NCBI GenBank assembly: GCA_937903325.1
Contig: CALCZR010000058.1
Span: 1,034-65,033, forward strand
Reading direction: 5' to 3'
Source of the DNA: an uncultured Candidatus Saccharibacteria bacterium
GTDB lineage: Bacteria > Patescibacteriota > Saccharimonadia > Saccharimonadales > AWTP1-31
DNA: 64,000 nucleotides
Part shown: in pieces, positions 16,614 to 45,031 of the stretch
Layout of the letters: each line of letters begins with the position of its first letter
Position numbering within the stretch: position 1 is the first letter of the stretch
The notes under the pieces: generated by a model
The model's input: the letters and a program-made list of their open reading frames with translations, nothing else
Database searches by the model: none
What the model was told of the DNA's origin: nothing
Made by a program: the position numbers and the translations under genes

Positions 16614-18392
16614 TTACGCTATAATCACCCCTTGTAATTCCACGTTAGTAGGGCGTCGCCAAGTGGTAAGGCACCAGTTTTTGGTACTGGCATTCGGGGG
16701 TTCGAATCCCTCCGCCCTAGCCATATGACCTTCGGGTCGAAATTGAGCTAAAAAAACGTCAGACACCTCTGTCGTTTTTTTATTTTCAGGTGTTCGAACT
16801 TTCAAATCTGCGTAGTTAGGTGTTTTGGTGAAAATTAGGCTGAAAAAGTTAGCTTTTGCAACCGGATTACTCTGTTGGAGTATCAAAATATCAAGGTGTT
16901 CGAAAAAATATCTGGCATAACGCATAACATCCTTCATTCCGAGTGGTTTCTCGATCTTTATTTGTGATTTCTCGTACTGCAAGTTTTCTATCTCCTTTTC
17001 GATACGGACGATCTCGTCCTCAATGAACTTAATGGCTGTTTCGTTATTTAGAAACTTAATCTTATCCATGCTTTGTCGAGCCTCAAGCGAAAGGGCTTTT
17101 ATATGCTCGTCTATAGCATCTGCTTCGTTTATATTGACCGCATTGCGTTTCTCCCATACTTGCATTACTTTTTCCTCAAACGCGTCCATATAGGCCTCAT
17201 TGACCCTCAGACTCTTCACAAACTGTTCTACGGTCTCTTCGAACTCAGCGAGCGGTATACGCACATTGTGGTTGTCTCTACGGCAGTGATAGGCTGGATA
17301 GTACTTGCCGAGCTTGCCACGCGACGCACTGCCGTATAGCGACCTATCGCATTCTGGACACAGTACAGCCTTCTTAAAGGGGAAGTCATTTGTCTTGGTT
17401 CCTACTTTATTGGCATGGTTCGGGTCTTTGTTAACAATTATCTTTGGTTCGCCGCCATTGTCATGGATAATAAACTTTCCACGATTAGCTCGATTGAATA
17501 GATCAACGTCAATAATGCCCTTGAATTTAAGCCTAATAGCTTTGTAGTTCGTCCATTTGCCGTAGGTTATTCCGGCGTACACTGGATTATTAATCATCCG
17601 CAGGAAAGACTTTGGAGCAAGCGGCTCACCTCCTCGTTGGCCGGTAATACGAGTTGGGTCTGACTTATCTCTCGTGTATTGAATATGCGTTTTAAAACCA
17701 CGTTTATTCATGAGATCAATAATCTCTTGATCGGACATTTTGCCTTCGGCTCGTAGCATAAACATGCTTTTCACGGTTGCTGCTTCCGTAGGGTGCGGAA
17801 CAAGGATAGTGCGCTTACCATGAGGTGTTATCTTCTTCTGACACTGCATACCGTAGATATCGCCACGTACCCAGTAGCCCATACGGCAATAGCGGATCTG
17901 TGCACCGATCATACGGCTCATAATGTCACGAATTTCATCTCTAGACTGCTCAGCCGCCAATAGCTCGCTCTTAAGCGTAGGCGAGTAGACACTCCAATCG
18001 TATTCGATACCGAGGTATGCTAGGGTGTTTACTTTTTCCGTACCGATAACGCCATAGGTATCAATGAGGCCAATGTTTAGCTCATCTAGCTGTTCTTTGA
18101 GGTGTCCATACGGCTTAAAGCCACCACGGGTGAAGCGATCGATTGATTTAACTATAAACAACTCAACACGTGAGTCGTTTTTTATCTGGTCGATGGCACG
18201 CTGCATCGGTTGTTCTTTTTTCGAACCAGACTCATAGAACTTAATGTAATCTATGATGACGATATTATTATGCTCAGCATAGCGGTCTATCTGCTCCTGC
18301 TGTGCTTTTGGTGAGTCCTTAAGACCCTGTTCCTTAGACGAAACACGTATGCCGCCGTAAGCATAGCGTACTCTATTCTGTGGTATCGCCAT
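16614..18392 (-). CDS. large serine recombinase (integrase); the 3' end reads antisense through tRNA-Gln
   Basis: Resolvase domain YGGIRVSSKEQ and DRFTRG, recombinase domain, Cys-rich zinc ribbon (CPECDRS...YHCRR), coiled-coil region. ATG at 18392 with a GGAGGGAGAGGAG RBS. The last ~36 codons are the reverse complement of the tRNA. Confidence 0.85.
   Translation of the reverse strand: MAIPQNRVRYAYGGIRVSSKEQGLKDSPKAQQEQIDRYAEHNNIVIIDYIKFYESGSKKEQPMQRAIDQIKNDSRVELFIVKSIDRFTRGGFKPYGHLKEQLDELNIGLIDTYGVIGTEKVNTLAYLGIEYDWSVYSPTLKSELLAAEQSRDEIRDIMSRMIGAQIRYCRMGYWVRGDIYGMQCQKKITPHGKRTILVPHPTEAATVKSMFMLRAEGKMSDQEIIDLMNKRGFKTHIQYTRDKSDPTRITGQRGGEPLAPKSFLRMINNPVYAGITYGKWTNYKAIRLKFKGIIDVDLFNRANRGKFIIHDNGGEPKIIVNKDPNHANKVGTKTNDFPFKKAVLCPECDRSLYGSASRGKLGKYYPAYHCRRDNHNVRIPLAEFEETVEQFVKSLRVNEAYMDAFEEKVMQVWEKRNAVNINEADAIDEHIKALSLEARQSMDKIKFLNNETAIKFIEDEIVRIEKEIENLQYEKSQIKIEKPLGMKDVMRYARYFFEHLDILILQQSNPVAKANFFSLIFTKTPNYADLKVRTPENKKTTEVSDVFLAQFRPEGHMARAEGFEPPNASTKNWCLTTWRRPTNVELQGVIIA
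16649..16723 (+). tRNA. tRNA-Gln (anticodon UUG), CCA encoded
   Basis: Hand-folded cloverleaf. Acceptor TAGGGCG/CGCCCTA, anticodon stem CCAGT/ACTGG with loop TTTTGGT, T arm GGGGG-TTCGAAT-CCCTC. U1:A72 and G73 are as in bacterial tRNA-Gln. A perfect TATAAT sits at 16620-16625. Confidence 0.9.
16750..16786. terminator. bidirectional intrinsic terminator after tRNA-Gln
   Basis: A7 run, stem ACGTCAGA/TCTGTCGT (7 of 8 pairs), 4-nt loop, T7 run. It lies inside the 3' part of the recombinase ORF. Confidence 0.7.
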
Positions 18393-18570
18393 GCTCCTCT
18401 CCCTCCTGTAGCTCCTTGAGCAACAATCTGTCATTGTCCAAATCTATTAGAATGCGATCAACCACCATAGTGGCGATCATCTCGATACGCGTCTCAGTCG
18501 GAAGCGACGTAAAGTACTGCTCTGAAGTGGTAGCTTTTTGGACTAATTCTTCTGCATTAAGTTGAGCCAT
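18373..18570 (-). CDS. hypothetical small acidic protein upstream of the recombinase (65 aa from MAQLN)
   Basis: ATG at 18570 preceded by GGAGGG. Overlaps the recombinase start by 20 nt. Candidate accessory or directionality factor by position only. Confidence 0.5.
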   Translation of the reverse strand: MAQLNAEELVQKATTSEQYFTSLPTETRIEMIATMVVDRILIDLDNDRLLLKELQEGEEHGDTTE

Positions 18571-18585
18571 ACTGTGTCCCTCCAA

Positions 18586-18758
18586 CAGTGATAACTATCG
18601 TTATATCTATAGTTTACTATAACTATACCGATAGTTTCAAGTACTTTGTGTGCAATATAATGAAGTCATCGGTGTCTTCACTCTGATTCCTTAAATGCAT
18701 CTGTTATTATTGGTATTTTTATTCTTCTTTATTACTATATACATATAGGAACAGAAAG
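18586..18758. promoter_or_regulatory. AT-rich divergent intergenic region with four alternating AACTAT/ATAGTT hexamers
   Basis: AACTAT at 18593 and 18621, ATAGTT at 18609 and 18631. ATAACTAT is repeated 28 nt apart, and AACTATCG (18593-18600) is inverted as CGATAGTT (18629-18636). Confidence 0.35.
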
Positions 18759-19592
18759 ATGGTGCGGTGGGGGAAGCTACAATGCTCTATGAAATCAACA
18801 GTATTCATCAATCAATCACAACTAAAGCTATTGCAATTCATTACTAAGTATCGGTTTGTAACAGCTCGACAGGTACAACAAAACTTTGGCTTCAAAAGTA
18901 GGACATCGGTAAACAACAAGTTAAAACGACTAGTGGCTACCGGCCTCATCGGTATGCAGTATGACAAGTCAAAAAAGCTATCAGGCGTTCCAGCTATTTA
19001 CTATGCAACACCGCAAGGTCTCCGCGAAGTTACCTCGCACCTTCCATATATCACTGAAGCAATTATTCGAGCTGCCTATAGTGATGCCGATGCTTCTGGC
19101 ACCTTGATAGAGAAAAGTGCTGAGATATTCAATATCGCCCAGCCCCTTCGTAACCAGTACCCGGATATGACAGTGCTTACGGCACGGCAAATAGGCGACC
19201 TAAGCTATTTTCCGCGGCCATTGCCTGATCTCTACCTTGCACACAAGCGTAGCGACACTACGCATAGGTACTTTGTGTATAACCTGCGAGACACAAAACG
19301 CTACGACATTGCTGTTCGTAGCACCATCACCAAACTCATGTCCTACCGTGAGTCCGAGACCTATGCAGAGTCGGGCAATGAGTTCCCAGCGATCCTGCTG
19401 GTCTGTCATTCAGCAGCCATCGAACGATTAGCCCAACGGGTCATGCAAAGTGCCTTAAACAAGTCGTATGAGTCTATACCGGTATATACGACGAGCTACC
19501 AAGCACTCGTTCAGCTTGAAGATACGAATCAACCCATATGGTCGAGCCTCAACGATCCCGACACTCTCATAACCCTTACAGAAACTGAGTAG
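18759..19592 (+). CDS. replication-relaxation (Replic_Relax, PF13814-like) family protein
   Basis: N-terminal wHTH pattern LKLLQFITKYRFVTARQVQQNFGF...KLKRLVATGLI...YYATPQGL, typical of this family. Alternative ATG at 18789. Confidence 0.65.
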   Translation: MVRWGKLQCSMKSTVFINQSQLKLLQFITKYRFVTARQVQQNFGFKSRTSVNNKLKRLVATGLIGMQYDKSKKLSGVPAIYYATPQGLREVTSHLPYITEAIIRAAYSDADASGTLIEKSAEIFNIAQPLRNQYPDMTVLTARQIGDLSYFPRPLPDLYLAHKRSDTTHRYFVYNLRDTKRYDIAVRSTITKLMSYRESETYAESGNEFPAILLVCHSAAIERLAQRVMQSALNKSYESIPVYTTSYQALVQLEDTNQPIWSSLNDPDTLITLTETE

Positions 19593-19619
19593 TTTTCTGT
19601 CGTACTCAGGACATGGCGC

Positions 19620-20096
19620 CTAGTTATGGCAGTCTACCTGCACAACCCAAAGGCCATCCCAATTTTCCAAGTACTGCGCAAGGCTCACCTGATTCGTTAT
19701 GGGGCTGCCATGGGTATCAAACAGATAGCACGCATTAGCATGATAGCCACTAGCTACACTAAACTGGTAGCGAGACAGATAATGCCCCTCAACCTGCTCA
19801 AACTTTTCATTAAAGATATCTTCGTCACTGTACACCTTACACATAAACAGAATGGTATCCATAGCCAAGCTAAACTCAGCTAATTGACCTCGCATAGCGT
19901 CCTCAACCAACGCTTGACCTTTCTTGGACTGGAGCTGTACCGGCTTCCAGCACTCCTCCCAACGACTATCATCTGCTTCGCTGCTGTACCAATCAAACTC
20001 GTGCTGTTCGATTAGCTGGTTCATCACGCATTCTGCGTGACTATTAGCTTCTTTGGCATCCTGTGCCTCAACAATAAATCGGATTAAGTAATGCAT
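19620..20096 (-). CDS. hypothetical acidic protein
   Basis: 158-codon ORF with an AGGAGAAA-type RBS. No family recognised. Confidence 0.5.
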   Translation of the reverse strand: MHYLIRFIVEAQDAKEANSHAECVMNQLIEQHEFDWYSSEADDSRWEECWKPVQLQSKKGQALVEDAMRGQLAEFSLAMDTILFMCKVYSDEDIFNEKFEQVEGHYLSRYQFSVASGYHANACYLFDTHGSPITNQVSLAQYLENWDGLWVVQVDCHN

Positions 20097-20162
20097 TTCG
20101 TTTCTCCTTATTAGTTAGGTTGTGGGTAGTTTTGCGTCATACCCAGGACTGATGAGCTAGGG

Positions 20163-20489
20163 CTAATACTCCTCAGCCAACATAACGGTTAAAACCTTGC
20201 GGCACTCATCACTAAGTGGGTCACAGTAGCCAGCAAAATCAAGACCGTAGTAATCTATCTTCCAAAACAGTTTGCGACCGTCTAGCTCAAAAGAACCGAA
20301 GTCATGCTCTCCGTACGGATCGTTGTCTTCAGTAAAAGCAGCAAACTCACGAACCTTGCTGATAACCTCGCTAATATTGCAGTTCTCCCACACGCCAGCC
20401 GTAATCGTAAACTCGGCTGGATTGTCAGTGCGGAACATGTCATTGTCCTCGGCAATGATTGCTGCCCGTTCTATTGTTGTAATGTCCAT
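20163..20489 (-). CDS. DUF3768 domain protein (plasmid/ICE-associated family)
   Basis: DNDPYGEHDFGSF and FWKIDYY motifs. ATG at 20489 preceded by AAGGAGGGG. Confidence 0.7.
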   Translation of the reverse strand: MDITTIERAAIIAEDNDMFRTDNPAEFTITAGVWENCNISEVISKVREFAAFTEDNDPYGEHDFGSFELDGRKLFWKIDYYGLDFAGYCDPLSDECRKVLTVMLAEEY

Positions 20490-20728
20490 TGGACCCCTCC
20501 TTGTTATATTCCTGAGAGGGCTATTCCTGCCTCTCTGGCAAGGAGAAACGGGGGGCACACCAAAAGAGTCAAGGTGGAGACTTGTACTACCTTGAGGCTT
20601 TTGGTTTACCCGTATACTAAAAAGACAGAGGAAGGAATCACCCTGTCATATCAAAAACAAAAGATAACGGTATACTAAAGCTAGAGAGGTTTGTGCCTTA
20701 CGCTTTTGCGAGAGGGCATAAGCCTCTT

Positions 20729-20944
20729 TTATTTTGAGTTTCGTTTGTATTCTCTGCGAGCCACATACACAACAACTCCAAGACCCACCAGAGCTAGTAC
20801 AAGAAGAAAGAGGTAGCCAAATTTTGGTATGCCATACGCAAAGTAGTGAAGACCAACTATTAAATGCGCCACTAGTAGTACTGTTATTACGAACGCTAGT
20901 GTATACGGAAGTGTTCTAAGCGCTGCTTTTGTGTTTTTCTTCAT
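20729..20944 (-). CDS. small membrane protein (two TM segments)
   Basis: 71 aa with two hydrophobic helices. 4-nt overlap with the upstream gene. Confidence 0.5.
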   Translation of the reverse strand: MKKNTKAALRTLPYTLAFVITVLLVAHLIVGLHYFAYGIPKFGYLFLLVLALVGLGVVVYVARREYKRNSK

Positions 20945-21420
20945 AAAAACCTTATGGTCTGCAAGACCCTACGTTTGTGTATATCGCTATCTGGAAACAT
21001 ATCTACAATAGTAATCTCATCAATGGCTACCGAGTCGCCAGTATGTAATCGAGCCTTCTTTTGTACGGTTGCATGAGCACGATATCCGTCCTTCATATAT
21101 TTCGGTTCATCGAAAGCTGCGCCTTCAGTCTCCAGTATGCCAACAAGCTTCTTGTGAAGTTCAAGCATATCTGGAGTCATAACCATGGCTGTAACCTGTA
21201 TATCCCGATTTGCTCCGAAGTATTCATCCGCACCGGCGACTAGTTCAAGGGCTTTTTGATCTCTCAGTTTATCGCCAATTACATCAGCTAACTCCTGCGC
21301 ATCATAGGGAACAGTAAAGTTAGCAACTAGTGTTATGTGCAATGGCCAATAGTTGTCGGCGATAAATTCGTCTCCCTCGTGCACGGGCTCTAGGAATTTA
21401 ACGAGTACGTATTTTTGCAT
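20941..21420 (-). CDS. 2H phosphoesterase superfamily protein (LigT / 2'-5' RNA ligase-like)
   Basis: Two HxT/S motifs (PLHITLV and RAHATVQ) at the spacing typical of 2H enzymes. Confidence 0.6.
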   Translation of the reverse strand: MQKYVLVKFLEPVHEGDEFIADNYWPLHITLVANFTVPYDAQELADVIGDKLRDQKALELVAGADEYFGANRDIQVTAMVMTPDMLELHKKLVGILETEGAAFDEPKYMKDGYRAHATVQKKARLHTGDSVAIDEITIVDMFPDSDIHKRRVLQTIRFL

Positions 21421-21429
21421 GTGTTAGCC

Positions 21430-22890
21430 TTATGATTTAGCTCCTGCTAACCGAAGTGCGGTAATCCCAGAAAGTAGCTGTAGGTCTCGCAAGCTTTCGT
21501 CACCACCCTCCCATATAGGGGTTGCCGCAGCATTAAGCCAGAACCCAGCCATCCAGTGAAATGCATCAGGATCTACTCTTTCAATAAGCTCAGCAGGAAC
21601 ATCAAAACCGGACTTTTGGATGTGCGTTAGCGTGGCAGCCAAATCAATATCTCTATCCCCGTATTGTGCCCAATTCCAGTCGACTAATCGAACTTGGCCG
21701 GTCTCTGGATTCCAGGCACAGTTGTCGGCTCTGAGATCGTAATGTACGAGTGTATCGTCAGCAAATTTATATTTGCTGGCTTTATCTGTATCGGCAGTAA
21801 AATCAATACCTTGTGCGATATCGTCCGCACCTACTCCATGGAGTTTATGTCTTAATACTTCTTGCATCTCGGGAGACTCTAAGAGAGGTCGCCAACCGTC
21901 CTCATCCTGGCTGATGCTACTTTTAATAAATATGGTACGTTCAGCATCACTGAGCTTTAATGCAGCCAAGTCGTCCATAGCCTTAAGCGTGGCTGCTAAT
22001 CGTTCCGCAGTCCAGTTATCTTGCCAATCCCAACCATTTTCGGGGCTAAAGGCTTCAAGGGCAAAGGCTGAGTTGTCGGCATTTGTAGCAACAAGGTGCG
22101 GACTGTGTTCGAATCCATGAGCCTCTAAAGCCTTATACACGGCGACTTCTTTTCGTGCCCACATGCGAGTATTCTCCGCCGTGCCAACTTTTACAAACAC
22201 TTCTTTGCCGTCCGGTAGGGCTACGAGGCCACGCTGCGCCTGGCTAAAACCGCCCTCAACATCCTTGAGATGTGGCAACTGTTGTTCGACAGCTTGCCAG
22301 TCGTCACTAGAATCACCGTCTGCTTTCAACACCATCTCAATCTCCGGAATCTCCACAACACCACGCTCACGAGCATCTAAGTCCTCAATAGCTTTTCCGG
22401 TTTTCTCGAAACCATTCTTTTCGTAGAAGCCGATGGCGTTGTCGTTGTAGCTGGCTACATGTAAGTAGATATCCTCATCTCGGCCATGCCAATCAATAGC
22501 TTTATCTAACAGCTTGCGGCCTAGACCTTTGCCCTGAGCTTCCGGTAGTACGTAAATAGCACCAATTCTGCGTTGTCCGTCCATAATGCCTGGAGCAACA
22601 AAGCCCATTACTTTGCCCTCGTCTTTGGCAACAAAGATTGCACGATTTTCGCCACTGGTCTCAATGCCCTTACGCCACCATGCTATTTTGTCGGCAACTA
22701 ACTCACCGTGTTCGCCCTCTACACGATTGCGTACATCCTGTTCGGTAATGCCAGCTTCTTCGTTTGGGTAGGTATCAATCCAGGTTTGACGTTGTACCTC
22801 AAATACACCTGCTGCATCTTCTGGTGTAGCTGGTTGAACTTCGAGTGTTGGAGTGGGTTGCTCTGGCTTGGGGAGGGGTTGTTCGCTCAT
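21430..22890 (-). CDS. fusion protein: N-terminal GNAT acetyltransferase plus C-terminal aminoglycoside-phosphotransferase-like kinase
   Basis: GNAT motif A RRIGAIYVLPEAQGKGLGRKLL. Kinase catalytic loop VHYDLRADN and VDWNWAQYGDRDIDLA. Confidence 0.75.
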   Translation of the reverse strand: MSEQPLPKPEQPTPTLEVQPATPEDAAGVFEVQRQTWIDTYPNEEAGITEQDVRNRVEGEHGELVADKIAWWRKGIETSGENRAIFVAKDEGKVMGFVAPGIMDGQRRIGAIYVLPEAQGKGLGRKLLDKAIDWHGRDEDIYLHVASYNDNAIGFYEKNGFEKTGKAIEDLDARERGVVEIPEIEMVLKADGDSSDDWQAVEQQLPHLKDVEGGFSQAQRGLVALPDGKEVFVKVGTAENTRMWARKEVAVYKALEAHGFEHSPHLVATNADNSAFALEAFSPENGWDWQDNWTAERLAATLKAMDDLAALKLSDAERTIFIKSSISQDEDGWRPLLESPEMQEVLRHKLHGVGADDIAQGIDFTADTDKASKYKFADDTLVHYDLRADNCAWNPETGQVRLVDWNWAQYGDRDIDLAATLTHIQKSGFDVPAELIERVDPDAFHWMAGFWLNAAATPIWEGGDESLRDLQLLSGITALRLAGAKS

Positions 22891-22962
22891 AGGGTTATTT
22901 TATCAGTAAGTTTTGTTTTGTGGGTCAGTTTCGACGTAGGATCAACTAAGAGGGTAATCGCT

Positions 22963-23529
22963 TTACCTAGATTTAAAGGCGGAAAACTGTGGGCTAATTG
23001 GAGTGGTGCCCGAGAAATCTACCGAGCCATGCCACACATCGGCAGTTTCATTATCCAGTTCGTACAGAATGCCATCTGCCAGATCTAAGGCAACGCCTCT
23101 GATCTCACGACCTTCTGTGTTGCGGTCTATGGCAATACTGGCAGGTGCGTACCTAGATAGTTCTTCGGCAATGGTATCTGAAGATGGCCACTTGACTTCG
23201 TCCTGACTTTGCTGTGTTTGGACGATCTGGACAGTGGCGGCCTCAAAGCCGTCACCAAATTGTCTGACTAGTCGTTCGATATCAAAGTCTAGCATGCGTG
23301 TATGTGACAGGTGCGCTAGTAAACCCCTCCCAGACTCACGAGAATGCACAGCAATAGCCTTACAGGTGAATAGCCCCATGGTTGCCACATACGGTAGTTC
23401 CGGCGAATAATCTGCCACTACAAAGTCACCTTCACGCACAGCATGAAAGTTGATTTTTCTATCCATCGGTCGGGTAGAAAAGGTATTAAATTCACCAGAT
23501 GACATGAGAGCTATTATAACACTATACAA
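22963..23529 (-). CDS. hypothetical protein (start uncertain)
   Basis: 188-codon ORF with a TTG start; internal ATG at 23505. The GLFTCKAIAV...GLLAHL segment weakly recalls Cys/His amidohydrolases such as CheD. Not verified. Confidence 0.4.
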   Translation of the reverse strand: MYSVIIALMSSGEFNTFSTRPMDRKINFHAVREGDFVVADYSPELPYVATMGLFTCKAIAVHSRESGRGLLAHLSHTRMLDFDIERLVRQFGDGFEAATVQIVQTQQSQDEVKWPSSDTIAEELSRYAPASIAIDRNTEGREIRGVALDLADGILYELDNETADVWHGSVDFSGTTPISPQFSAFKSR

Positions 23530-23624
23530 CGCTTATGTAAATCACTATATTTGACAATCTGGTATTGTATATGTCCTAATAATCTGGTACTATGTGTGTG
23601 GATTGGGGTGTCCCCAATCGGCAT

Positions 23625-23655
23625 AAGGTCTCCTTTTCGGAGGCTTTTTGTTTTT
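23625..23655 (+). terminator. orphan plus-strand intrinsic terminator
   Basis: 9-bp stem (AAGGTCTCC / GGAGGCTTT, two G:U pairs), 5-nt loop, then TTTTTGTTTTT. There is no plus-strand gene upstream. Confidence 0.5.
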
Positions 23656-23682
23656 ATATACGCCGCCTTAATCCTATTTCTG

Positions 23683-24403
23683 CTACTTAGGAAAGATCTT
23701 AATTCCGTAGCCTATGAAACCTCGTGGGCCACTACGTATTTTGCTACGGATAACATCAAAAGCGATGTTGGGTTCATTGTTATTAATAACATGCCGAGCA
23801 ATCGGGTAAGCACAAAGATCTGCGATCTGTAGGCCACAGTCATTATCTCGCTTAAGCTTAACTTCTAATTCCTGGTCGTAGATATGGATGAGTCGTGCCG
23901 TGTCTATCTGGCTGGTGCCACGATAGAGGAGTTCGTTATAGCGTTTGGCAAGTTGGGCATCTTCACGCTTACCACGTCCTTCAATAATGACATGAATATT
24001 GTCAGCATCTCGTTTGTCATCAGCTTCAAAGACAGTGCGTTCGAGGACGAAGGTCAGAGCAATCTCGTACGGATCATCGGCAAGTTTACCGTAGGTTTGG
24101 ATATGCTTTTCTTTATCTATGGCTGAGGCAATAATGGTGTAGTCCATGTCGGACAAAATGCTATTCAGCTCTTGGTAGAACCGTTTCTTAACTTCGGCAT
24201 CAAAGAAGATCTCAAAGCCACGTTCGTACTTGCGCATGTCTCGACGATGCAAGATGACATCTTGAGTTGTGAAGTACTTGTGCTTGAGAGCAGCTATCTT
24301 CTGAAAACAGCACACCGGTTAGCACAAACACCGGAAAGTTAGGGTCAATCTTCCGAAGCCCATGGTTACCAGATTCATCCAAGAATAATAGGTAGTTGCT
24401 CAC
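23683..24403 (-). pseudogene. DUF3800 family gene split by a frameshift
   Basis: The N-terminal fragment (24212..24403, MSNYLLFLDESGNHG) and the C-terminal fragment (23683..24315) overlap in different frames. The switch lies near the T4 run at about 24300. Confidence 0.6.
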
Positions 24404-24492
24404 AGATCAATTGTAATACCTTACCAGTGGGTTTCAAAAGACGAACGCCGAGTAAGATAATCTAGGCAAACAGAGGTGCTATACTTAGTATC

Positions 24493-25179: not shown

Positions 25180-25187
25180 TCACGAAC

Positions 25188-29640: not shown

Positions 29641-29641
29641 A

Positions 29642-35728: not shown

Positions 35729-36240
35729 AAGCAACCGTCGTCCCAGCTCAAATCACCACCATCGAAGACCGCATAGTCGGCAGCCTTGGAATGTCGCAGC
35801 TTGTGCTACTCATATTGCCAGTCATCCTTGGCGGTGGACTATTCATTGTCTTGCCGCCCACCATGCACTTAGCTCCTTACAAAATATCACTCATCGCCCT
35901 ACTAGCAGTCTTTTGTGCGACCATGTCGATCCGAATTAAAGGTCGGATCATACTACTATGGCTCGTTACGATTCTCCGCTATAACATCCGGCCTCGGTAC
36001 TACGTGTTCAACAAACGAAGTCAGCGTGGACGCGAGCAATATCTGCATGCTGTAGAACAAGAGCCGCCCAAAGAGAAAGAAACAAAGACAGTTACCAAGC
36101 TTAAAGAGTTACGCCTGAGCACCGCTGAGATTATCCAAGTCGAACGACTATTGGCCGATCCAGCAGCAAATGTTTTTTATGCAACTGACAAGAAAGGAAG
36201 ACTCAATGTCCGTATTACAGAAGTCAAACCGGAAAGCTAG
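35725..36240 (+). CDS. PrgI family (VirB3-like) T4SS membrane protein
   Basis: VPAQITTIEDRIVGSLGMSQLV followed by two TM helices. 4-nt overlap with the upstream gene. Confidence 0.65.
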   Translation: MKATVVPAQITTIEDRIVGSLGMSQLVLLILPVILGGGLFIVLPPTMHLAPYKISLIALLAVFCATMSIRIKGRIILLWLVTILRYNIRPRYYVFNKRSQRGREQYLHAVEQEPPKEKETKTVTKLKELRLSTAEIIQVERLLADPAANVFYATDKKGRLNVRITEVKPES

Positions 36241-38571: not shown

Positions 38572-39155
38572 GCCCTGTACTTCTCCTAACGTTTTCAGGA
38601 AGCATCAAAAAGCACTTCTGGGTCGCTATGGCGACACTGGTGGTTCTAGTATCCATGCCTATGATCGTTGTCATTTCGTTTGGGCAGAACGTACTGCAAT
38701 ATTTATCTGGTAGTGGCGCGGAAACTACTTACGCCATATCAACCGAAGTACAAGGGTTCTACGAAGGCCCAGAAGTTGCTGGCGATACCTACGAGTGGGG
38801 TAACTGCACGTATTGGGCTTACGCGCTACGCCTTAAAGATGGCCATCCCATTCCGACCACATGGGGCAATGCTAACACTTGGGATGACGGCGCACTGCGA
38901 GATGGATACGAAGTAAATAGCACGCCAGAAGTAGGAGCAATTTTCCAGACAGACGAAGGCAAATGGGGGCACGTAGCCTACGTCAGCGAAGTTAATGACA
39001 GTACTGGCGAGTGGAAGATATCTGAGATGAACGTAAAAGGTCGCAATGTTGTCAGTAGCCGTACGTTTGCCGCTAGCTCAGCTAAGTATTTCAACTTTAT
39101 TCATTACAAAATAGGAGACATAGCATGGAACTTCCAGCCTACGTTGCTATTGTAA
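38568..39155 (+). CDS. CHAP-domain peptidoglycan hydrolase (VirB1 functional analogue)
   Basis: N-terminal TM anchor, catalytic GNCTYWAY (Cys) and WGHVAYV (His). Confidence 0.8.
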   Translation: MSPVLLLTFSGSIKKHFWVAMATLVVLVSMPMIVVISFGQNVLQYLSGSGAETTYAISTEVQGFYEGPEVAGDTYEWGNCTYWAYALRLKDGHPIPTTWGNANTWDDGALRDGYEVNSTPEVGAIFQTDEGKWGHVAYVSEVNDSTGEWKISEMNVKGRNVVSSRTFAASSAKYFNFIHYKIGDIAWNFQPTLLL

Positions 39156-41707
39156 TGCACTACTGTTTGGTAGTGGTAATAACTTTTGGGGTACTGCTGG
39201 CAGTATATGGACTCTTCGTCGCAGTACGTCTATATCTCAACCGCAAATACCTTAAGAACCGTGAGCTTATCTGGCTAGAACTTACACCGCCAGCCACGCT
39301 TGAGAAAACACCAGAATCAACAACGCAACTTTTTTCGGTTATACATGGTTTGCGCACTGCCCGCTCTTTCAAAGATCATGTACTTAACCGTGCACCGGTA
39401 CTTGATTTTGAGATTGTATCCTCCAAGCAGGAGGGTATTCGTTATCTGGTTTGTATAGAACGGTCATGGTCAGACGTTCTCCAAAAAGCTGTAGCTGCCT
39501 ATATCCCCGATGCTAAAGTACGACCTACAGAATACACACCGTCACCGACTCAAGCCCTTATCGAGTTTAAGCAGCAACAGCATTACGTTCTGCCACTTAC
39601 CACGCCACGTAACTTCGAACAACACGACCCCTTGTCGTATGTGACGGCGGCAATGACAAAATTGAGTGATGATGAACAATTAACCATGCAACTTGTCATC
39701 ACGCCCGTAAAGCTCAGTGAAGCTACTCGGCTCTCCAAACGCATTAGGAGTAATGAAGATATCCTCCAGAAAGTTTCGCACGGGGGTATTTCCCGAATTA
39801 GTAAAGTCAGCGGCATGGTTGGTAGTGGCCTGCTGAATATGACGGATGCTATTGGCGAAACCTACCATGGGTCAACCTCCGCATATAAGCACAACGCATC
39901 GAGTCGAGATGCCGCTTTTCAGACCCAAGTACAGAAGCGCCAACGACCGGCTCGAACGCTGAGCGCCTTTGAGTTGGAGCTCATGGAGTCTATGAACCAA
40001 AAGGTCTCACAGCAACTGTTCCAGGTAAGCCTACGGATTATGACCAATGGCCAGCAAGCACACAGACAGCTTGCCGCTCTCAGGTCAGCACTGGATGGCT
40101 ACTCCATGCCACCGTACCAAGCACTAAAAGCAAAGCTACGTCTTCCACTGTTTGATGAATATCACAAAAGGTTGGCCAACAAACGACTACCAAATCTATC
40201 TCGGAAACGATCCCTAATCCTATCTGCAACCGAAGTTGCCAGCCTATATCACTTTCCGTCAACTCGAATCAGTAAAACAGATAATCTCGTCACCTCACTG
40301 AGCCGTACGCTCCCAGCTCCCATATCCCTGAAGAATAATCCTCAGCTCGATGTTATCTTGGGCGAGAATACTCACCGTGATGTTCATACACCGATTGGTT
40401 TGACTGCCGCTGAACGAGAGCGCCACATCTACATTATTGGTGGCACGGGTAACGGCAAGACCACCATGCTTCAATATGGCATCGTACAAGACATGCAGAA
40501 CGGTAAGGGACTGGCTGTTGTTGATCCCCATGGAGATATGGCCGAAACATTATTACGGCACGTGCCGGAGCACCGAATTAAAGATGTCGTGTACTTCAAC
40601 CCTGACGACATCGAACGACCAATAGGCATGAATCTCCTTGAGATCCCAGATGGTTTAAATGAGGATCAGAAAAACAAGGAAAAGGATCTTGTTACCGAAT
40701 CTCTTGTCTCCGTTTTCCGCAAAATCTTCTCCGAAGAAGATACCGGTGGTCACCGTATCGAATATGTCCTACGTAGTACGATTCAGACAGCCTTAACTGT
40801 TAAAGATGCAACAATCTTTACGATCTTTGAACTCCTCAATGATCCCGTGTATAGAACAAAGGTGGTCGCCAAACTCGATAATAAGCACCTCATCAACTTC
40901 TGGAAACACGAGCTTGGCAAAGCCGGAGACATGCAAAAGGTAAAAATGGCAGCCGGTATCACTGCTAAGATCGGCCGCTTCCTGTTCTCGGATAGTGCTA
41001 AGCGTGTTCTAGAGCAACCGAAATCAACTATAAACTTCGAGGAGATCATAGATGAAGGTAAGATCCTTATCTGCAACTTCTCGAAAGGGCTCATCGGTGA
41101 AGATACATCCGAGCTGTTCGGTATTACCGTTTTAGCCAAGCTCCAACTAGCCAGCTTACGACGTGCCCGCGTACGTCAGGGCACTCGTAAACCATTCTAT
41201 TTGTATGTTGACGAGTTCCAGAACTTTGCTACTCAATCATTCGTCCAAATGCTGAGCGAGTCACGTAAATATAAGTTATTCCTGACCATGGCCGAGCAGT
41301 CTACCTCCCAACAGAAAGATCAACGCATGGTGCAAATTGTACTTGCCAATGTGGGGACAATCCTGTGCTTCAGAACTGGTAATCCAGCGGACGAGAAGCT
41401 TCTGCTACCACTCTTTAGCCCATACATTAATGAGGGTGAAATATCCAACCAGCCGCCATTCAACTTCTATGCACGCTTTGCCTCAACAATCTCCCAGGAA
41501 CCGCTGTCTGGCAATACCATTGTTCTAGAGAGCGATGGTGATGAAACGATAGCCGAAAAAGTACGCAAAGCATCCCGAGCCACCTACGGTAACGACCCCT
41601 TGCCACAAGAAAAGCCTAGGAAAACAGCCAGCTCTGGAGACAAAGCAAAGTCGAATAACCAACGCAAAAAGACAGCGCAAGGCGACCCAGAAGATACACG
41701 CAACTAA
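39125..41707 (+). CDS. type IV coupling protein (VirD4/TraD-like ATPase) with a long N-terminal extension
   Basis: N-terminal TM, Walker A IIGGTGNGKTT, VVDPHGD, Walker B YLYVDEFQNF. An alternative ATG at 39155 overlaps the CHAP stop (TAATG). Confidence 0.8.
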   Translation: MELPAYVAIVMHYCLVVVITFGVLLAVYGLFVAVRLYLNRKYLKNRELIWLELTPPATLEKTPESTTQLFSVIHGLRTARSFKDHVLNRAPVLDFEIVSSKQEGIRYLVCIERSWSDVLQKAVAAYIPDAKVRPTEYTPSPTQALIEFKQQQHYVLPLTTPRNFEQHDPLSYVTAAMTKLSDDEQLTMQLVITPVKLSEATRLSKRIRSNEDILQKVSHGGISRISKVSGMVGSGLLNMTDAIGETYHGSTSAYKHNASSRDAAFQTQVQKRQRPARTLSAFELELMESMNQKVSQQLFQVSLRIMTNGQQAHRQLAALRSALDGYSMPPYQALKAKLRLPLFDEYHKRLANKRLPNLSRKRSLILSATEVASLYHFPSTRISKTDNLVTSLSRTLPAPISLKNNPQLDVILGENTHRDVHTPIGLTAAERERHIYIIGGTGNGKTTMLQYGIVQDMQNGKGLAVVDPHGDMAETLLRHVPEHRIKDVVYFNPDDIERPIGMNLLEIPDGLNEDQKNKEKDLVTESLVSVFRKIFSEEDTGGHRIEYVLRSTIQTALTVKDATIFTIFELLNDPVYRTKVVAKLDNKHLINFWKHELGKAGDMQKVKMAAGITAKIGRFLFSDSAKRVLEQPKSTINFEEIIDEGKILICNFSKGLIGEDTSELFGITVLAKLQLASLRRARVRQGTRKPFYLYVDEFQNFATQSFVQMLSESRKYKLFLTMAEQSTSQQKDQRMVQIVLANVGTILCFRTGNPADEKLLLPLFSPYINEGEISNQPPFNFYARFASTISQEPLSGNTIVLESDGDETIAEKVRKASRATYGNDPLPQEKPRKTASSGDKAKSNNQRKKTAQGDPEDTRN

Positions 41708-41727
41708 GAGATGGTACAATAAACTTA

Positions 41728-41940
41728 ATGAGCGACAGAGAACTAAAACAACTTGGCAATAGGATACGCGAAGTCCGTAAGAAGCGAGGGTTAACGCAAC
41801 TTGAAGTTGCTAACTTAGCAGATACCAGCTCCAACTACTTTGCTGAGATTGAGCGAGGCCAAGCCAACCCGTCCTACTCTATGCTGACAGCAATCGCAAA
41901 AGCACTCAAAGTTAAGCTGAGTGATCTAATCCCTTCTTAG
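41728..41940 (+). CDS. XRE family helix-turn-helix transcriptional regulator
   Basis: IREVRKKRGLTQLEVANLADTSSNYFAEIERG is a classic Cro/C1 HTH. Confidence 0.85.
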   Translation: MSDRELKQLGNRIREVRKKRGLTQLEVANLADTSSNYFAEIERGQANPSYSMLTAIAKALKVKLSDLIPS

Positions 41941-41996
41941 AAGCACCTCAATAAGCTTAATTAACAGAGTAGCCGTATTTTTGCTATACTTTATTC

Positions 41997-42686
41997 ATGA
42001 AATCTGTTGGAGTAATTGGCGGACTTGGTCCTGAAACAACTGCTGAGTTTTACTTGGAAGTCATTTTTCAGTGTCAAAAACGAGATGATAAGCAGCGCCC
42101 TTTAATCGTTATATCTAGCGTACCACTTCTTTTTGAAATCGAAAGAGATCTCATTGAGTCCAATACGGGCAAAGAGCGCTACATTCCGTTTCTAATAGAA
42201 GAGGCGAAGCGACTCGAAAAAAGCGGGGTCGATTTTTTGGTCATGCCCTGCAACTCGCTCCATGTTTTCATAAACGAAATCAGGAGTGCAGTTAGTATTC
42301 CTGTACTAAGCATAGTTGAAGAGACGGCCAAATATCTTAAAAAGCAGGGCTTCGGCAAAGTCGGGCTTATATCAACCTCGGCTACTGTTGCAAACAACGT
42401 CTACGAGAGCAAATTACGGGATGAAGGCATCGAGTACGTTACGCCAGATGACCTGCAACGAGCCAAAATGGATAAAATCATCCAGAGGCTCATAAATGGT
42501 CAGCACCTCAACCAAGATAGGGAGCTGATACTCGAGGTCGTCAAAGGTCTATCAACACAAGACGTAGATAGTGTCGCCTTAGCATGTACCGATCTACAGC
42601 TTCTACTTCCAAGTAGTAGCGAAGTACCGATTTTTGACACGATGAAAGTCTTAGCAGAAAGTACCGTTGACACCATTCTCTCGTAG
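41997..42686 (+). CDS. aspartate/glutamate racemase family protein (aspartate racemase-like)
   Basis: GGLGPETT, and catalytic Cys motifs MPCNSLH and LACTDL. Confidence 0.8.
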   Translation: MKSVGVIGGLGPETTAEFYLEVIFQCQKRDDKQRPLIVISSVPLLFEIERDLIESNTGKERYIPFLIEEAKRLEKSGVDFLVMPCNSLHVFINEIRSAVSIPVLSIVEETAKYLKKQGFGKVGLISTSATVANNVYESKLRDEGIEYVTPDDLQRAKMDKIIQRLINGQHLNQDRELILEVVKGLSTQDVDSVALACTDLQLLLPSSSEVPIFDTMKVLAESTVDTILS

Positions 42687-42712
42687 AGCAATGGAATTGG
42701 TATAGATACATT

Positions 42713-43357
42713 ATGAAACTCTATCTATCGTCTTACCGCATGGGCAATCACACTGAGGAACTTAAGAAGCTTGTCGGCAAAGCTAATGCTAAAGTTGCGG
42801 TGTGTGTTAACGCCAGTGATGGTTCGGATGACGTTGAACGCAAAGCAGAGGGGCTTGCCCGGGAGCTTGAGGACATGAGAAGTCTCGGCTTTGAGGCCGA
42901 GCAACTAGACTTGCGTGAGTACTTTGGCAAAAGTGGACTTGCCGAAAAGATGAAATCCTACGATCTGATCTGGGTTAGGGGTGGCAATACATTCCTGCTT
43001 GCCAAAGCATTTCGGCAGAGTGGTTTTGATAAAGTCTTTGCCGACCAAGTTGTATCTGGTGGGCTCGTATATGCTGGATACAGTGCTGCATTCTGCGTAC
43101 TTAATACTTCCTTGCGTGGCGTAGAACTTGTTGATGACAAAGACGCTCAAGCCGAAGGCTACGAGCCTGGTGAGATCTGGGAAGGGTTAGGTGTCATAGA
43201 CTTTTATCCGATAGTGCACTTTAGGTCAGATCACCATGAGTCTGAGCTTGTTGAGAAAGAATACGAGTTTGTAGTCAAAAACAATATCCCCCACAAGACG
43301 TTCAAAGATGGAGATGTATACCTAGTTAATGGTTCCAAGCAGAGAACACTTTCTTAG
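42713..43357 (+). CDS. peptidase S51 / peptidase E-like protein (second paralogue)
   Basis: IWVRGGNTFLL and AGYSAA (nucleophile Ser) motifs. Confidence 0.7.
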   Translation: MKLYLSSYRMGNHTEELKKLVGKANAKVAVCVNASDGSDDVERKAEGLARELEDMRSLGFEAEQLDLREYFGKSGLAEKMKSYDLIWVRGGNTFLLAKAFRQSGFDKVFADQVVSGGLVYAGYSAAFCVLNTSLRGVELVDDKDAQAEGYEPGEIWEGLGVIDFYPIVHFRSDHHESELVEKEYEFVVKNNIPHKTFKDGDVYLVNGSKQRTLS

Positions 43358-43391
43358 TTGCGATAGGCTGCCTACTAGTTCGTCATAGGGG

Positions 43392-43595
43392 TTAAGACTT
43401 TGTTTCCCTGTACCACTTCTCAAGTAAATCGGGATTGGTATGAGATAGCTCGTGGAAGTTGGCATACATTTCTTCTAGCTTCTTAATAGCCATTTCGGGC
43501 GTGACGGTATCTTCTGGATATACAAGCTTTAGATGTCGAATCATCTTTTCGATATCGGCTTCGTTTAGTTCGTAGTCGTCTGGTAAATCGTTCAT
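43392..43595 (-). CDS. hypothetical small acidic protein
   Basis: 67 aa. Its start lies 1 nt after the upstream PLD-like stop. Confidence 0.5.
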   Translation of the reverse strand: MNDLPDDYELNEADIEKMIRHLKLVYPEDTVTPEMAIKKLEEMYANFHELSHTNPDLLEKWYRETKS

Positions 43596-43596
43596 A

Positions 43597-44076
43597 TTAT
43601 CTCCTAGTATATCTTTTTACATTTATAAACCCTAGTAACTTATCCGCTAACTCAGCGGAGTCCGTGCGCCACATGATCTCACAGCTATCTATTTGTGACA
43701 GGATGTTAAGGCTCCCATTCCATACGATCTCTTTATCAATTACGGCAAGTTTGCGATGATGCCGAGCCGTGTAGAATACCTCCACCCCGATAGACTGTAG
43801 AGCTGCTATCGCATTGAGCGCCTGAACTTCGTATTCCTCATTATGCTCAATAGGATCACGAGTATTGACGATGATCGACACACCTCTGCTACGCAAACGT
43901 GAGAGCAATGGGAATAATGCATTAATTCGGTTCGTTGTGATGAAGGGACACTCAATAACCACTTCGTTTTGAGCAAATCGTAAGTCCTCTTCAAAAGCTC
44001 TGTAGAATGACTCCTGATCGTACATTTGGACATGACCACTAGGTACACTCCTGATGCGTCGAAATATGTTTAGCAT
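43597..44076 (-). CDS. phospholipase D-like (HKD) domain protein, Nuc-type candidate nuclease
   Basis: A single HxK(x)4D motif (HHRKLAVID) followed by NGSLN. About 160 aa, as in single-HKD nucleases. Confidence 0.75.
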   Translation of the reverse strand: MLNIFRRIRSVPSGHVQMYDQESFYRAFEEDLRFAQNEVVIECPFITTNRINALFPLLSRLRSRGVSIIVNTRDPIEHNEEYEVQALNAIAALQSIGVEVFYTARHHRKLAVIDKEIVWNGSLNILSQIDSCEIMWRTDSAELADKLLGFINVKRYTRR

Positions 44077-44231
44077 ACATCGCCCTCCTCGTAGATAAGC
44101 TTGCCATCTATATCGTGTACACCAAGTCTTCTGAGGTTGTGCGCTAAGTCAATAAGTGATTGAATAAGGGTATCTGTTATTTCTAGGTGCTGTGGATAAG
44201 TGTTCGCAACTGCACCCTCCCACCTAGCCAA
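44070..44231 (-). other. 53-codon open frame entering repeat A; candidate displaced native 3' end of the recombinase gene or a small CDS
   Basis: Open from TTG GCT AGG TGG GAG... to a TAA that overlaps the PLD-like ATG (GTATGCTAA). It has the same codon register across GCT AGG as the recombinase ORF across the tRNA. Confidence 0.35.
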
Positions 44232-44233
44232 AC
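44131..44233. repeat. direct repeat copy A, ending in a tRNA-Gln 3'-end-like core (candidate attR)
   Basis: CCCTCCCACCTAGCCA (44215-44230) versus the tRNA CCCTCCGCCCTAGCCA (16708-16723), 14/16 by hand. Roughly three-quarters identical to copy B over about 103 nt, ungapped. Confidence 0.6.
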
Positions 44234-44237
44234 TGAG

Positions 44238-44264
44238 AACCCATCGAAAGATGGGTTTTTTGTT
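44238..44264 (+). terminator. orphan plus-strand intrinsic terminator directly after repeat A
   Basis: AACCCATC-GAAA-GATGGGTT followed by TTTTTTGTTT. No plus-strand gene upstream. Confidence 0.7.
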
Positions 44265-44286
44265 TAGGACAGATCATTCTTATAAT

Positions 44287-44802
44287 CTACTGTGTAGCTT
44301 GTCGAATTCGATCAATTAGACTCAGAACGTCTACAGGTCCGTAGCCATAGCCAGCATCAGAGCTCATACCATCCTGCTTGAATGATGCAGTACCCCAGCC
44401 TCCACTCGGTAGTTGACTGACTATATCTACAGAGCATCTACCATGATCTGCAAATACTGACTGGTTCATTGTGCCACCCAAAGATACCCTAACAATTGTA
44501 GGAGTTTGGGATCCATAAATTGCTGCAGATGCTACTGAAAATATTGGATATTCTAAGCCACTAGCTTCTACTAAACGTTCGGCATCGCCCTCTGGCAACC
44601 ACGGGAAAGGCGCGGTCAGTACGGTAGTTGGATGTTCCGCATTATCGCTGAATCCGCCCATAGGTCCTTGGCGCCAATTACCTAATACGGCTTCATCATA
44701 ACCTTCTCGTCCTATTAGCTCATTACCTAACTCTTGTAGCCCTACTGCTTCTGGGCAAAGACCAATATCTAGCTTTGAAATCACTGTACAGCTCCTAAAC
44801 AA
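44287..44802 (-). CDS. hypothetical protein
   Basis: 171-codon ORF (TTG start, GTG alternative 6 codons in) between the two repeats. No family recognised. Confidence 0.45.
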   Translation of the reverse strand: MFRSCTVISKLDIGLCPEAVGLQELGNELIGREGYDEAVLGNWRQGPMGGFSDNAEHPTTVLTAPFPWLPEGDAERLVEASGLEYPIFSVASAAIYGSQTPTIVRVSLGGTMNQSVFADHGRCSVDIVSQLPSGGWGTASFKQDGMSSDAGYGYGPVDVLSLIDRIRQATQ

Positions 44803-44895
44803 CTTCTTAATATATAGTATTATTCAATAAACAAAATAAAATGTAAAGTCATATCTCTGAATAGTCATGTACTCTCATTGAGTATACTGAAACTC

Positions 44896-44998
44896 CTGAG
44901 CTCGTATGCCAACTTTATAAGTGATTGAACCAGCCTATCTGACACTTCAAAATCTTGTGGAAAAGTGTTCGAATTTACACCCTACCACCTAGCCAAAG
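44896..44998. repeat. direct repeat copy B (more degenerate tRNA 3'-end-like core)
   Basis: GTTCGAAT + TTACA + CCCTACCACCTAGCCA (core 44980-44995, 13/16 to the tRNA end). The frame homologous to copy A is interrupted by TAG. Confidence 0.6.
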
Positions 44999-45004
44999 TA
45001 AAAC

Positions 45005-45031
45005 GATCACCGTTTGGTGGTCATTTTATTT
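45005..45031. terminator. intrinsic terminator after repeat B, usable from both strands
   Basis: GATCACC-GTTT-GGTGGTC followed by ATTTTATTT. The reverse strand has GTTTTACTTT after the hairpin. It lies just downstream of the 45053..45949 gene. Confidence 0.6.

Follow-up and report, generated by a model that had tools for sequence, protein, structure and literature searches.

A probable integrative conjugative element with a split serine recombinase gene at the tRNA-Gln locus of a Saccharibacteria genome

The DNA analysed here (the window) is a stretch of 64,000 nucleotides from an uncultured Saccharibacteria bacterium (Patescibacteria, Candidate Phyla Radiation or CPR); loci compared with it are designated by L-numbers and compared proteins by P-numbers. 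Its sole tRNA gene, tRNA-Gln(UUG) (anticodon ttg; 16649-16723, + strand), is overlapped by a gene for a large serine recombinase (LSR; 16614-18392, - strand). This gene is followed by a Replic_Relax-family gene, about 13 kb of accessory genes, a type IV secretion system (T4SS) operon of the Gram-positive type (33864-41707, + strand) and, at 44.2 kb, a second copy of the tRNA end. The 27,507 bp between the tRNA gene and the end of this copy (16724-44230) are one integrated mobile element in a Saccharibacteria host, most probably, by gene content, an integrative conjugative element (ICE).

The tRNA gene was confirmed by ARAGORN, and the breakpoint was taken from the comparison of the window with L180 and L175. 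The host half of the left attachment site (attL) is the 3' part of the tRNA gene: T arm, acceptor strand and CCA. The core common to both ends is AGCCA, the last five nucleotides of tRNA-Gln, found at 16719-16723 and again at 44226-44230. The right-hand copy of the tRNA end (44215-44230) matches at 14 of 16 positions, far above chance (expectation 0.01; none of 100 shuffles gave two). It forms part of the right junction (attR, 44186-44261, + strand), which consists of an element arm with GTGTTC at 44200-44205, the core, and a host arm with the displaced terminator hairpin of the tRNA gene. The plus-strand terminator announced beyond the repeat by the first-pass annotation, made earlier on this DNA, corresponds to a hairpin with a T-run (dG -16.8), and a simple terminator scanner gave no flag there. 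The comparison of composition that it had proposed separated the element from its surroundings: the GC content was 45.4% within the element with respect to 48.2% on each flank, the ranges of 5-kb windows inside and outside did not overlap, and the tetranucleotide distance changed over at the element limits. The genes outside these limits had been described as housekeeping or regulatory; the right flank does not consist of housekeeping genes alone, as it also encodes a sigma factor and several proteins whose function is not assigned.

Copies of the element at a second site bear out the single integrated element that had been placed between the 3' end of tRNA-Gln and the 44.2-kb repeat. L180 carries 8,480 nt, from the LSR gene through the first Peptidase_S51 gene, with the same cargo order as the window, one mismatch, and an LSR 100% identical up to the junction; it is joined at ATGGCT| to a tRNA-Gln(CTG) gene whose flanking genes differ from those of the window. 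Three loci from three other runs (L175, L177 and L178) carry 4,629 nt of the other end (window 39597-44225) with 0 mismatches, and past TGGCTAGG they are unrelated to the window: their flank holds a different terminator hairpin, a 3' fragment of tRNA-Gln(CTG), an unrelated 430-aa LSR, a racemase and an ABC transporter. Altogether, 0-1 mismatches over 13.1 kb separate the copies at tRNA-Gln(TTG) and tRNA-Gln(CTG). As near-identical copies lie at two tRNA-Gln genes with unrelated flanks, the element has moved recently, and the crossover was confined to AGCCA. The PLD protein encoded at the right end occurs exactly in many assemblies.

At the second site itself, the unrelated 430-aa serine recombinase of L175 (2277-3569) is aimed at the junction, and the fragment of the tRNA-Gln(CTG) 3' end is 19 nt long (about 3640-3680). 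Several generations of elements appear to have used this insertion site as a hotspot.

As called in the integrated form, the LSR has 592 aa (mechanical open reading frame, ORF, 16614-18434) and matches the Pfam families Resolvase (PF00239, 39.7 bits) and Recombinase (PF07508, 30.9 bits). Its earlier identification as an LSR beside tRNA-Gln was right as to the enzyme; the gene overlaps the tRNA gene rather than merely following it. The match to Zn_ribbon_recom (PF13408) scored 18.9 bits, under the cutoff of 25.3, and the residues C345, C348, H369 and C370 were invariant in a 24-sequence alignment that includes the window protein, as were R16 and S18 (IRVSS), the latter being the serine nucleophile. 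Residues from about 420 to 480 read as a heptad-like stretch, putatively the coiled-coil insertion. The protein is 100% identical to P0001.

The LSR gene has no stop codon within the element DNA: it is element-encoded up to ..PEGHMA, and its last 37 codons or so (..HMA|RAEGFEPPNASTKNWCLTTWRRP..) are antisense tRNA-Gln and flank. When the right end of the element was joined to the left end at the core, the LSR frame ran on for about 50 codons (..HMAR|WEGAVANTYPQHLEITDTLIQSLIDLAHNLRRLGVHDIDGKLIYEEGDVC*), to a stop that overlaps the ATG of the PLD gene (ATGCTAA). Since the frame is open across the core into this tail, attP of the circular element lies inside the recombinase gene. In the window the detached tail (53 codons, (L)ARWEGAVANTYPQHLEITDTLIQSLIDLAHNLRRLGVHDIDGKLIYEEGDVC*; 44070-44231, - strand) remains in frame across the core, beside a right-end module (43392-44076, - strand) composed of the PLD gene (PLDc_2 by Pfam, Nuc-like; 43597-44076) and a 67-aa ORF (43392-43595). 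Judging from the reading frames, integration swaps the C-terminus of the LSR and uncouples the PLD gene from it. In the excised circle, the LSR would read into the conserved tail of about 50 aa and be translationally coupled to the PLD nuclease gene and the small ORF; integration detaches the tail, leaving it with the PLD gene at the right end, and the integrated LSR takes on a tail translated from antisense tRNA. This exchange of tails and the uncoupling of the PLD gene may have a regulatory role.

The tail is a real coding segment, as indicated by its frame-specific conservation and by purifying substitution patterns: its distal part, outside the att site, showed 36% amino acid identity in the LSR frame vs. 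15-19% in the other frames (15 loci), and dN was lower than dS in 39 of 39 evaluable pairs (15 distinct loci). The unsplit arrangement of LSR, tail and PLD was found in L094, L148, L172 and L181. L181 (protein P0245) is the unsplit sister of the window element; L094 (P0057) has the order Replic_Relax (- strand), LSR (+ strand, 602 aa, without a tRNA), PLD 3 nt past the LSR stop, small ORF and XRE; and in L148 and L172 the three parts are continuous, with PLD directly after the unsplit LSR. For L083 and for L034, a 10.7-kb element whose core measures 12 bp, reconstruction of the junction likewise restored an open frame ending at the PLD start.

Three further observations concern the ends of the LSR gene. 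In 19 right-end junctions (window 44229-44231 and 18 loci), the codon overlapping the CCA complement was ATG, TTG or GTG, never CTG; with such a start-type codon the detached tail could be translated alone in the integrated state, and the same pattern may merely reflect A/T-rich sequence after tRNA genes. In some relatives the LSR ORF extends at least 150 extra codons, through the tRNA or through unrelated sequence (L079, 11587-12073; P0017, 747 aa; P0106, 739 aa), and the length of the “integrated” C-terminus is arbitrary. At the other end of the gene, a 65-aa acidic ORF (18373-18570, - strand) overlaps the LSR start and was called in L001, L180, L181 and L182; of the 80 family loci, about 27 (at E<0.01) to 50 gave a tblastn match at the same position and on the same strand. 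This ORF is a candidate regulator or directionality factor, and the detached tail is another candidate directionality factor. No meaningful Pfam match was obtained for the tail, the 65-aa ORF or the 67-aa ORF.

The attachment sites share a common architecture. Counted from the CCA end, the motif G(T/A)(G/A)TTC occupies exactly nt 31-26 in each of six element arms (those of the window, L181, L034, L148, L172 and L094), and the T-loop GGGTTC of the tRNA occupies nt 26-21; the cores measure 5-12 bp, with minimal identity between attP and attB. An outer motif, that of the zinc-ribbon domain, placed 5 bp further out in attP than in attB is a hallmark of serine integrases (PMC3783163), and the 5-bp shift in the six arms agrees with that model. 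From these positions we infer that the LSR reads features common to all tRNAs, the T-loop (GGGTTCGAA) and the CCA-proximal end, with the element arm carrying a GTGTTC mimic. Recognition of such universal features would explain the existence of relatives at tRNAs for Glu, Gln, Arg, Leu, Lys, Ser, Asn and Asp. In the proposed reaction, the LSR would join attP on the circular element to the tRNA-Gln 3' end (attB); a crossover within the last five bases, AGCCA, would keep the tRNA intact. The junction sequences predicted are ..CACCTAGCCA|TATGACCTTCGGG.. for attP (long form GATAAGTGTTCGCAACTGCACCCTCCCACCTAGCCATATGACCTTCGGGTCGAAATTGAGC) and ..CGCCCTAGCCA|AACTGAGAACCC.. for attB (long form GGGGGTTCGAATCCCTCCGCCCTAGCCAAACTGAGAACCCATCGAAAGATGGGTTTTTTG).

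The same linkage of recombinase and tRNA recurs in a large family. Database searches gave 1,392 LSR homologues at E<=1e-5, and most of the top 120 end in tRNA-antisense peptides (GFEPP.., GIEPLLPG, GLEPTTPCLKGRCSN..). Relatives were found in 360 GTDB species genomes (one genome per species scanned); the locus counts given for this family refer to the best 80 of these 360, in 67 of which abutment to a tRNA could be evaluated, the other 13 stopping at the contig end. The 3' end of an opposite-strand tRNA was found about 10 nt inside the end of the LSR ORF in 60 of the 67 loci: Glu (28), Gln (21), Arg (3), Leu (2), Lys (2), Ser (2), Asn (1) and Asp (1). A divergent Replic_Relax-like gene was a neighbour of the LSR in 53 of the 80 loci and a type IV coupling protein (T4CP) in 37; DUF3768 recurred near the LSR in 8 loci and near the T4SS in 7. 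Almost all of these 80 loci carry a Patescibacteria label (Saccharimonadia, Microgenomates, WWE3, Shapiro-, Roizman- and Levyibacteria). Searches of IMG/VR viral contigs and of PLSDB plasmids gave no relative of the LSR family. A search for copies of the last 18 nt of the tRNA in the 10 kb beside the LSR performed no better than its reverse-strand control and gave right ends only in L034 and L083, because of the shortness of the cores and because most of the elements are longer than 10 kb.

Seven loci (L015, L045, L047, L048, L049, L077 and L078) come from metagenome-assembled genomes labelled Gammaproteobacteria, Pedobacter, Methylococcaceae, Methanobacterium or Chitinophagales. Their gene content looks patescibacterial, so that mis-binning is likely, and a host range of the family beyond Patescibacteria is the less likely reading.

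The T4SS operon was identified both by Pfam and by precomputed families, in agreement with the full set with a coupling ATPase at 33.9-41.7 kb, followed by an XRE regulator, that had been read from the sequence. All its genes are on the + strand: a VirB2-like pilin (T4SS_pilin; 33864-34271), a TrbL/VirB6-like protein with a pilin N-terminus (TrbL_4; 34280-35728), PrgI, which is VirB3-like (35725-36240), a TraC-like protein (36170-36835), VirB4 (36832-38571), a CHAP hydrolase (38568-39155) and the T4CP (39125-41707). The T4CP matched T4SS-DNA_transf (24.0 bits, cutoff 20.1), TrwB_AAD_bind (23.5, cutoff 20.5) and TraG-D_C (23.2, cutoff 22), and the mating-pore genes also gave matches to AAA_10, CagE_TrbE_VirB and TraG P-loop. 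The order VirB2-VirB6-PrgI-TraC-like-VirB4-CHAP-T4CP was conserved among VirB4 loci, which are here the best 80 of 392 metagenome relatives (76-84% identical); the T4CP was present in 64 of the 80, the rest being cut by contig ends, and PLD followed the T4CP in 26. About 19 of the regions upstream of PLD read as right-end junctions: tail, element arm, a core complementary to a tRNA 3' end, and then a hairpin or tRNA flank. The cores differed according to the tRNA: TGGTGACCTC for Glu, TGGCTGG for Gln, TGGTGCGC/TGGTGCAC for Leu, and others. Junctions on different tRNAs thus bound one and the same T4SS module, in keeping with mobile elements. More than 5,000 homologues of VirB4 were scored; identity was 80-85% for most of the 120 listed, and the homologues bear Saccharimonadales names. 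The best relative of the S11 peptidase encoded on the flank, outside the strain's own cluster, was 63% identical. By these identities, the T4SS is either much more strongly conserved than the host backbone or has been shared more recently.

A Replic_Relax-family (MOBC-type) helix-turn-helix (HTH) protein is encoded next to the LSR module (18759-19592, + strand; PF13814, 26.2 bits vs. a cutoff of 25.3). Among the Replic_Relax-like neighbours of the LSR, 31 of 40 matched PF13814 (best E 3e-15), and the protein of L172 covered the profile nearly over its full length (positions 1-182 of 191, E 4e-9); a profile search of solved structures gave MarR-type HTH matches only. PF13814 is listed as a MOBC relaxase in CONJscan-based work (PMC5357655), and its domain is a PD-(D/E)XK fold fused to an HTH. 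The protein is a candidate relaxase or replication initiator. After excision it would process the DNA, and the T4CP would hand the DNA on to the element's own T4SS (VirB4, VirB6, PrgI, CHAP and VirB2-like pilins), through which it would pass into another cell; a T4SS of this kind would also be able to mobilise the smaller relatives, which have LSR, Replic_Relax and T4CP only. Conjugative transfer with the Replic_Relax protein as relaxase is in this way suggested by gene content. A 21-nt inverted repeat (18593-18636; 86% complementary, 2-nt spacer), located by a repeat search in the divergent region between the LSR module and the Replic_Relax gene, is a putative operator or origin of transfer (oriT). 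As the element combines a T4SS of the Gram-positive type with an integrase, a T4CP and a Replic_Relax/MOBC-family protein, the label of candidate, possibly self-transmissible ICE given in the first-pass annotation was fair.

The search for an empty site in this host lineage gave none: all 9 of the 9 contigs with the right-flank gene also carry the element, exact look-ups of the left-flank, right-flank and o171 proteins gave element-bearing contigs only, and the same-strain contigs are all colinear with the window. The scan of genome contigs with the flanking S11 peptidase gave no relatives, and the nearest relatives of this peptidase are 52-63% identical. Of their loci only two, L087 (59%) and L090 (52%), extend as far as the tRNA; these share the left-flank synteny and have tRNA-Gln directly followed by a terminator, with neither LSR nor T4SS; as their right flank is non-syntenic, they are not a clean empty site. 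L087 also holds a 364-bp remnant of an LSR 3' end, 90.7% identical to the window, whose homology ends at the same core. This remnant sits 4 kb from the tRNA-Gln, and a 26-aa T4CP fragment lies near the tRNA (1533-1896 and 5508-5585); both look like scars of past elements. The contigs L088, L089, L091, L092 and L093 break 130-340 bp beyond the S11 peptidase start, which is the position of tRNA-Gln in L087, L090 and the window, and a population polymorphism or a repeat would fit these recurrent breaks. Odd contig tails were considered as junctions and rejected, as they are Illumina adapter sequence: contigs L005 (2353-2401) and L006 (941-971) from the source study end in AGATCGGAAGAGC..., an untrimmed read contamination.

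Several results weigh against a conjugative element that excises as a circle. For this strain, exact-protein look-ups of contigs recovered no empty site, circular junction or repaired attB. A dyad-symmetry scan of the six attP sequences gave no consistent crossover centre, and the central dinucleotide was not located by it. The unsplit LSR-PLD arrangement of L172 (15532-17346) lies within a chromosome-sized assembly (1.2-Mb contig), and L139 and L140 (0.46- and 0.81-Mb contigs) have a 154-aa LSR remnant with tail and PLD (15421-15885); the rule that an unsplit gene marks an excised circle does not explain such arrangements in contigs of 0.46-1.2 Mb. The arrangements of L172, L148 and L139/L140 adjoin T4SS genes, and the unsplit forms in megabase contigs may come from assembly through excised copies, from mosaic tandem arrays or from resident islands that have not recombined. 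The Replic_Relax match of the window is marginal and covers only the HTH part (profile positions 1-74); its clade keeps the PD motif, the acidic/lysine motif is variable, and the PD-(D/E)XK catalytic positions are not clearly conserved. Both oriT and the recombination directionality factor are known only as candidates. Finally, the T4SS of Southlakia ML1 is essential for epibiotic growth and has no recognisable coupling protein or relaxase, a precedent that leaves room for a host-interaction role of the T4SS of the window.

This precedent is the basis of an alternative that we regard as unlikely though worth weighing, in which the LSR integrates and excises a mobile “epibiosis island”, the T4SS serves the bacterial-host interaction through export of proteins or other cargo, and the island spreads by natural transformation or another route that bypasses this T4SS. 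The Southlakia T4SS has been proposed not to move DNA, and Saccharibacteria are naturally competent; the identity of VirB4 (80-85%) with respect to that of the S11 peptidase also fits a strong functional constraint, and the relaxase assignment in the window is weak. However, the LSR-Replic_Relax-T4CP trio is kept in small elements devoid of a T4SS, such as the 10.7-kb L034, which is the signature of a mobilisable element, and this retention of the T4CP and MOBC-type pair argues against an island devoted to epibiosis. Moreover, candidates for both of the proteins missing from the ML1 locus are adjacent to the T4SS in the window, and a t4cp homologue was reported to be non-essential for epibiotic growth.

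An old insertion domesticated as an immobile island, with a decaying LSR and a T4SS kept for the host, is a very improbable alternative to the integrative element. Every contig found in the host lineage carries the element, and some relatives keep T4SS and PLD although the LSR is truncated or lost: L139/L140 have a remnant of it, and L114 and L171 gave no LSR match beside the nearby tRNA-Gln. Against these stand the copies with 0-1 mismatch over 13 kb at two tRNA genes with unrelated flanks, one of them with an intact LSR sequence up to the junction; the LSR of the window also has the alignment-invariant residues, by definition, being itself in the alignment. The absence of any discrete element (a coincidental repeat, an assembly artefact or a prophage) is scarcely credible. 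Metagenomic assemblies can be chimeric and two related contigs end in Illumina adapter, but the repeat far exceeds chance and the same junction architecture occurs in dozens of independent assemblies; for a prophage, no phage structural family was found among the Pfam-scanned ORFs between 16.6 and 45.9 kb, and no relative in IMG/VR. The prophage and chance-repeat readings were rejected on the repeat statistics, the recurrent junctions and the second-site copies.

The element, taken as an ICE, resembles the serine-integrase ICEs and integrative mobilisable elements (IMEs) of Gram-positive bacteria (streptococcal, MPF-FATA; PMC5357655, PMC4701971) in its outward-facing integrase at one end, relaxase candidate, T4CP, VirB4, VirB6, PrgI-type protein, cell-wall hydrolase and short att cores, and in the tandem accretion with decayed elements at the same site. 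Unlike these, which target protein-coding genes, it targets the extreme 3' end of a tRNA gene, its integrase ORF spans attP, and it has VirB2-like pilins, a Patescibacterium host and a divergent Replic_Relax/MOBC relaxase candidate. With the phage large serine integrases (phiC31, Bxb1, A118/LI, SPbeta; PMC3783163, PMC5499577) the LSR shares the Resolvase, Recombinase and zinc-ribbon/coiled-coil parts, a very short attP/attB identity and the outer motif 5 bp further out in attP. Those enzymes use unique coding or intergenic sites and a separate directionality factor, whereas the attB of the window consists of T-loop and CCA end, the LSR C-terminus differs between the excised and integrated states, and a directionality factor is only a candidate.

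Among the archaeal tyrosine integrases of the SSV type, genes split by their own integration are already known. The “suicidal” SSV1-type integrases of archaeal viruses and plasmids (PMC7253208, PMC8371274) likewise have the site inside the integrase ORF and a tRNA target, and integration splits the gene and leaves the pieces at opposite ends of the element. The likeness is limited to this arrangement of gene and site: SSV1-type enzymes are archaeal tyrosine recombinases that lose an essential part, and the window enzyme is a bacterial serine recombinase, outside the SSV family, that loses only a C-terminal extension of about 50 aa and the coupling to PLD, with its recognised catalytic and DNA-binding domains intact. 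The self-split LSR gene is a bacterial counterpart of the archaeal arrangement, and possibly a built-in state switch.

Recent work presents the T4SS of Patescibacteria as a chromosomally encoded system that has no relaxase and has been turned to the epibiotic lifestyle; it was described as mostly without a relaxase and with a T4CP rarely near virB4 (PMC12102498; PMC10633639; PMC12857230). The main text of PMC12102498 does not contain the words recombinase, integrase or tRNA, nor PMC10633639 the words recombinase or mobile, and nothing linking Patescibacteria with serine recombinases or ICEs was found in the literature searched. The operon of the window has the components described (VirB2-like pilins, VirB6, PrgI/VirB3, TrsD/TraC-like protein, VirB4 and hydrolase, in the Saccharimonadia-type order), but its last gene encodes a T4CP, and it is part of an element that is bounded by a recombinase and has a MOBC-type candidate. 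The presence of this kind of T4SS on a recently mobile element, together with a T4CP and a MOBC-family candidate, and the wide occurrence of the LSR-Replic_Relax-T4CP trio make the question of DNA transfer or host interaction testable on a defined element. For serine integrases, tRNA targeting had been represented by 14 computational cases only, with “experimental proof required”; in the family described above, 60 of 67 evaluable loci adjoin the 3' end of a tRNA, and the architecture of the site suggests how universal tRNA features are read. Such compact tRNA-end integrases could also aid genetics in CPR bacteria, for which there are few tools.

A broader proposal can be put forward tentatively, and we give it rather less than even chances. 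The element may belong to a phylum-wide, unrecognised Patescibacteria family of conjugative or mobilisable elements, whose LSRs would use the T-loop and CCA end as attB and whose divergent MOBC-type proteins would be the “missing” relaxases; of the thousands of orphan T4CP genes, many might belong to such elements. The split of the LSR gene, which would yield a different protein in each state, might then be a state sensor that switches PLD and steers the direction of recombination; a classical directionality factor would not be needed, or the detached tail would take its place.

Beyond the right end of the element, the segment 44232-45022 was recognised by the alignment of two right ends as a remnant of an earlier related element. 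It contains an ORF (44287-44802, - strand; 165/171 aa, no Pfam match) and a decayed second right end (44860-44995), with GTGTTC at 44965-44970, a core, a CCA end at 44995 and a homologous tail that contains an in-frame stop; a second terminator (45005-45022) lies beyond it. This decayed end is 82% identical in nucleotide sequence to the attP region of the sister element L181, which identifies it as the relic of an earlier insertion. The remnant between the two right ends measures about 760 bp, and the flanks downstream of both are alike (TTTGTTTAGGA vs. TTTATTTAGCA).

The remaining genes of the element are accessory, and, as with the Replic_Relax-like gene, the earlier reading of a DUF3768 gene and about 13 kb of accessory enzymes was matched by Pfam. 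DUF7995 and DUF3768 genes lie at 19620-20558 (- strand; DUF3768 at 20163-20558). The cargo region proper (20941-33820, about 13 kb) encodes small enzymes and transporters: a 2'-5' RNA ligase-like protein, a GNAT-APH fusion, DUF3800, Peptidase_S51, an EamA transporter, NUDIX, Exo_endo_phos, DUF952, Ser_hydrolase, PNPOx, GNATs, YCII, APH, Ldh_2, a HAD-like protein and DUF898. Between the T4SS operon and the right-end module, the + strand encodes the XRE regulator (41728-41940), an Asp/Glu racemase and a second Peptidase_S51 (41728-43357 in all), identified by Pfam.

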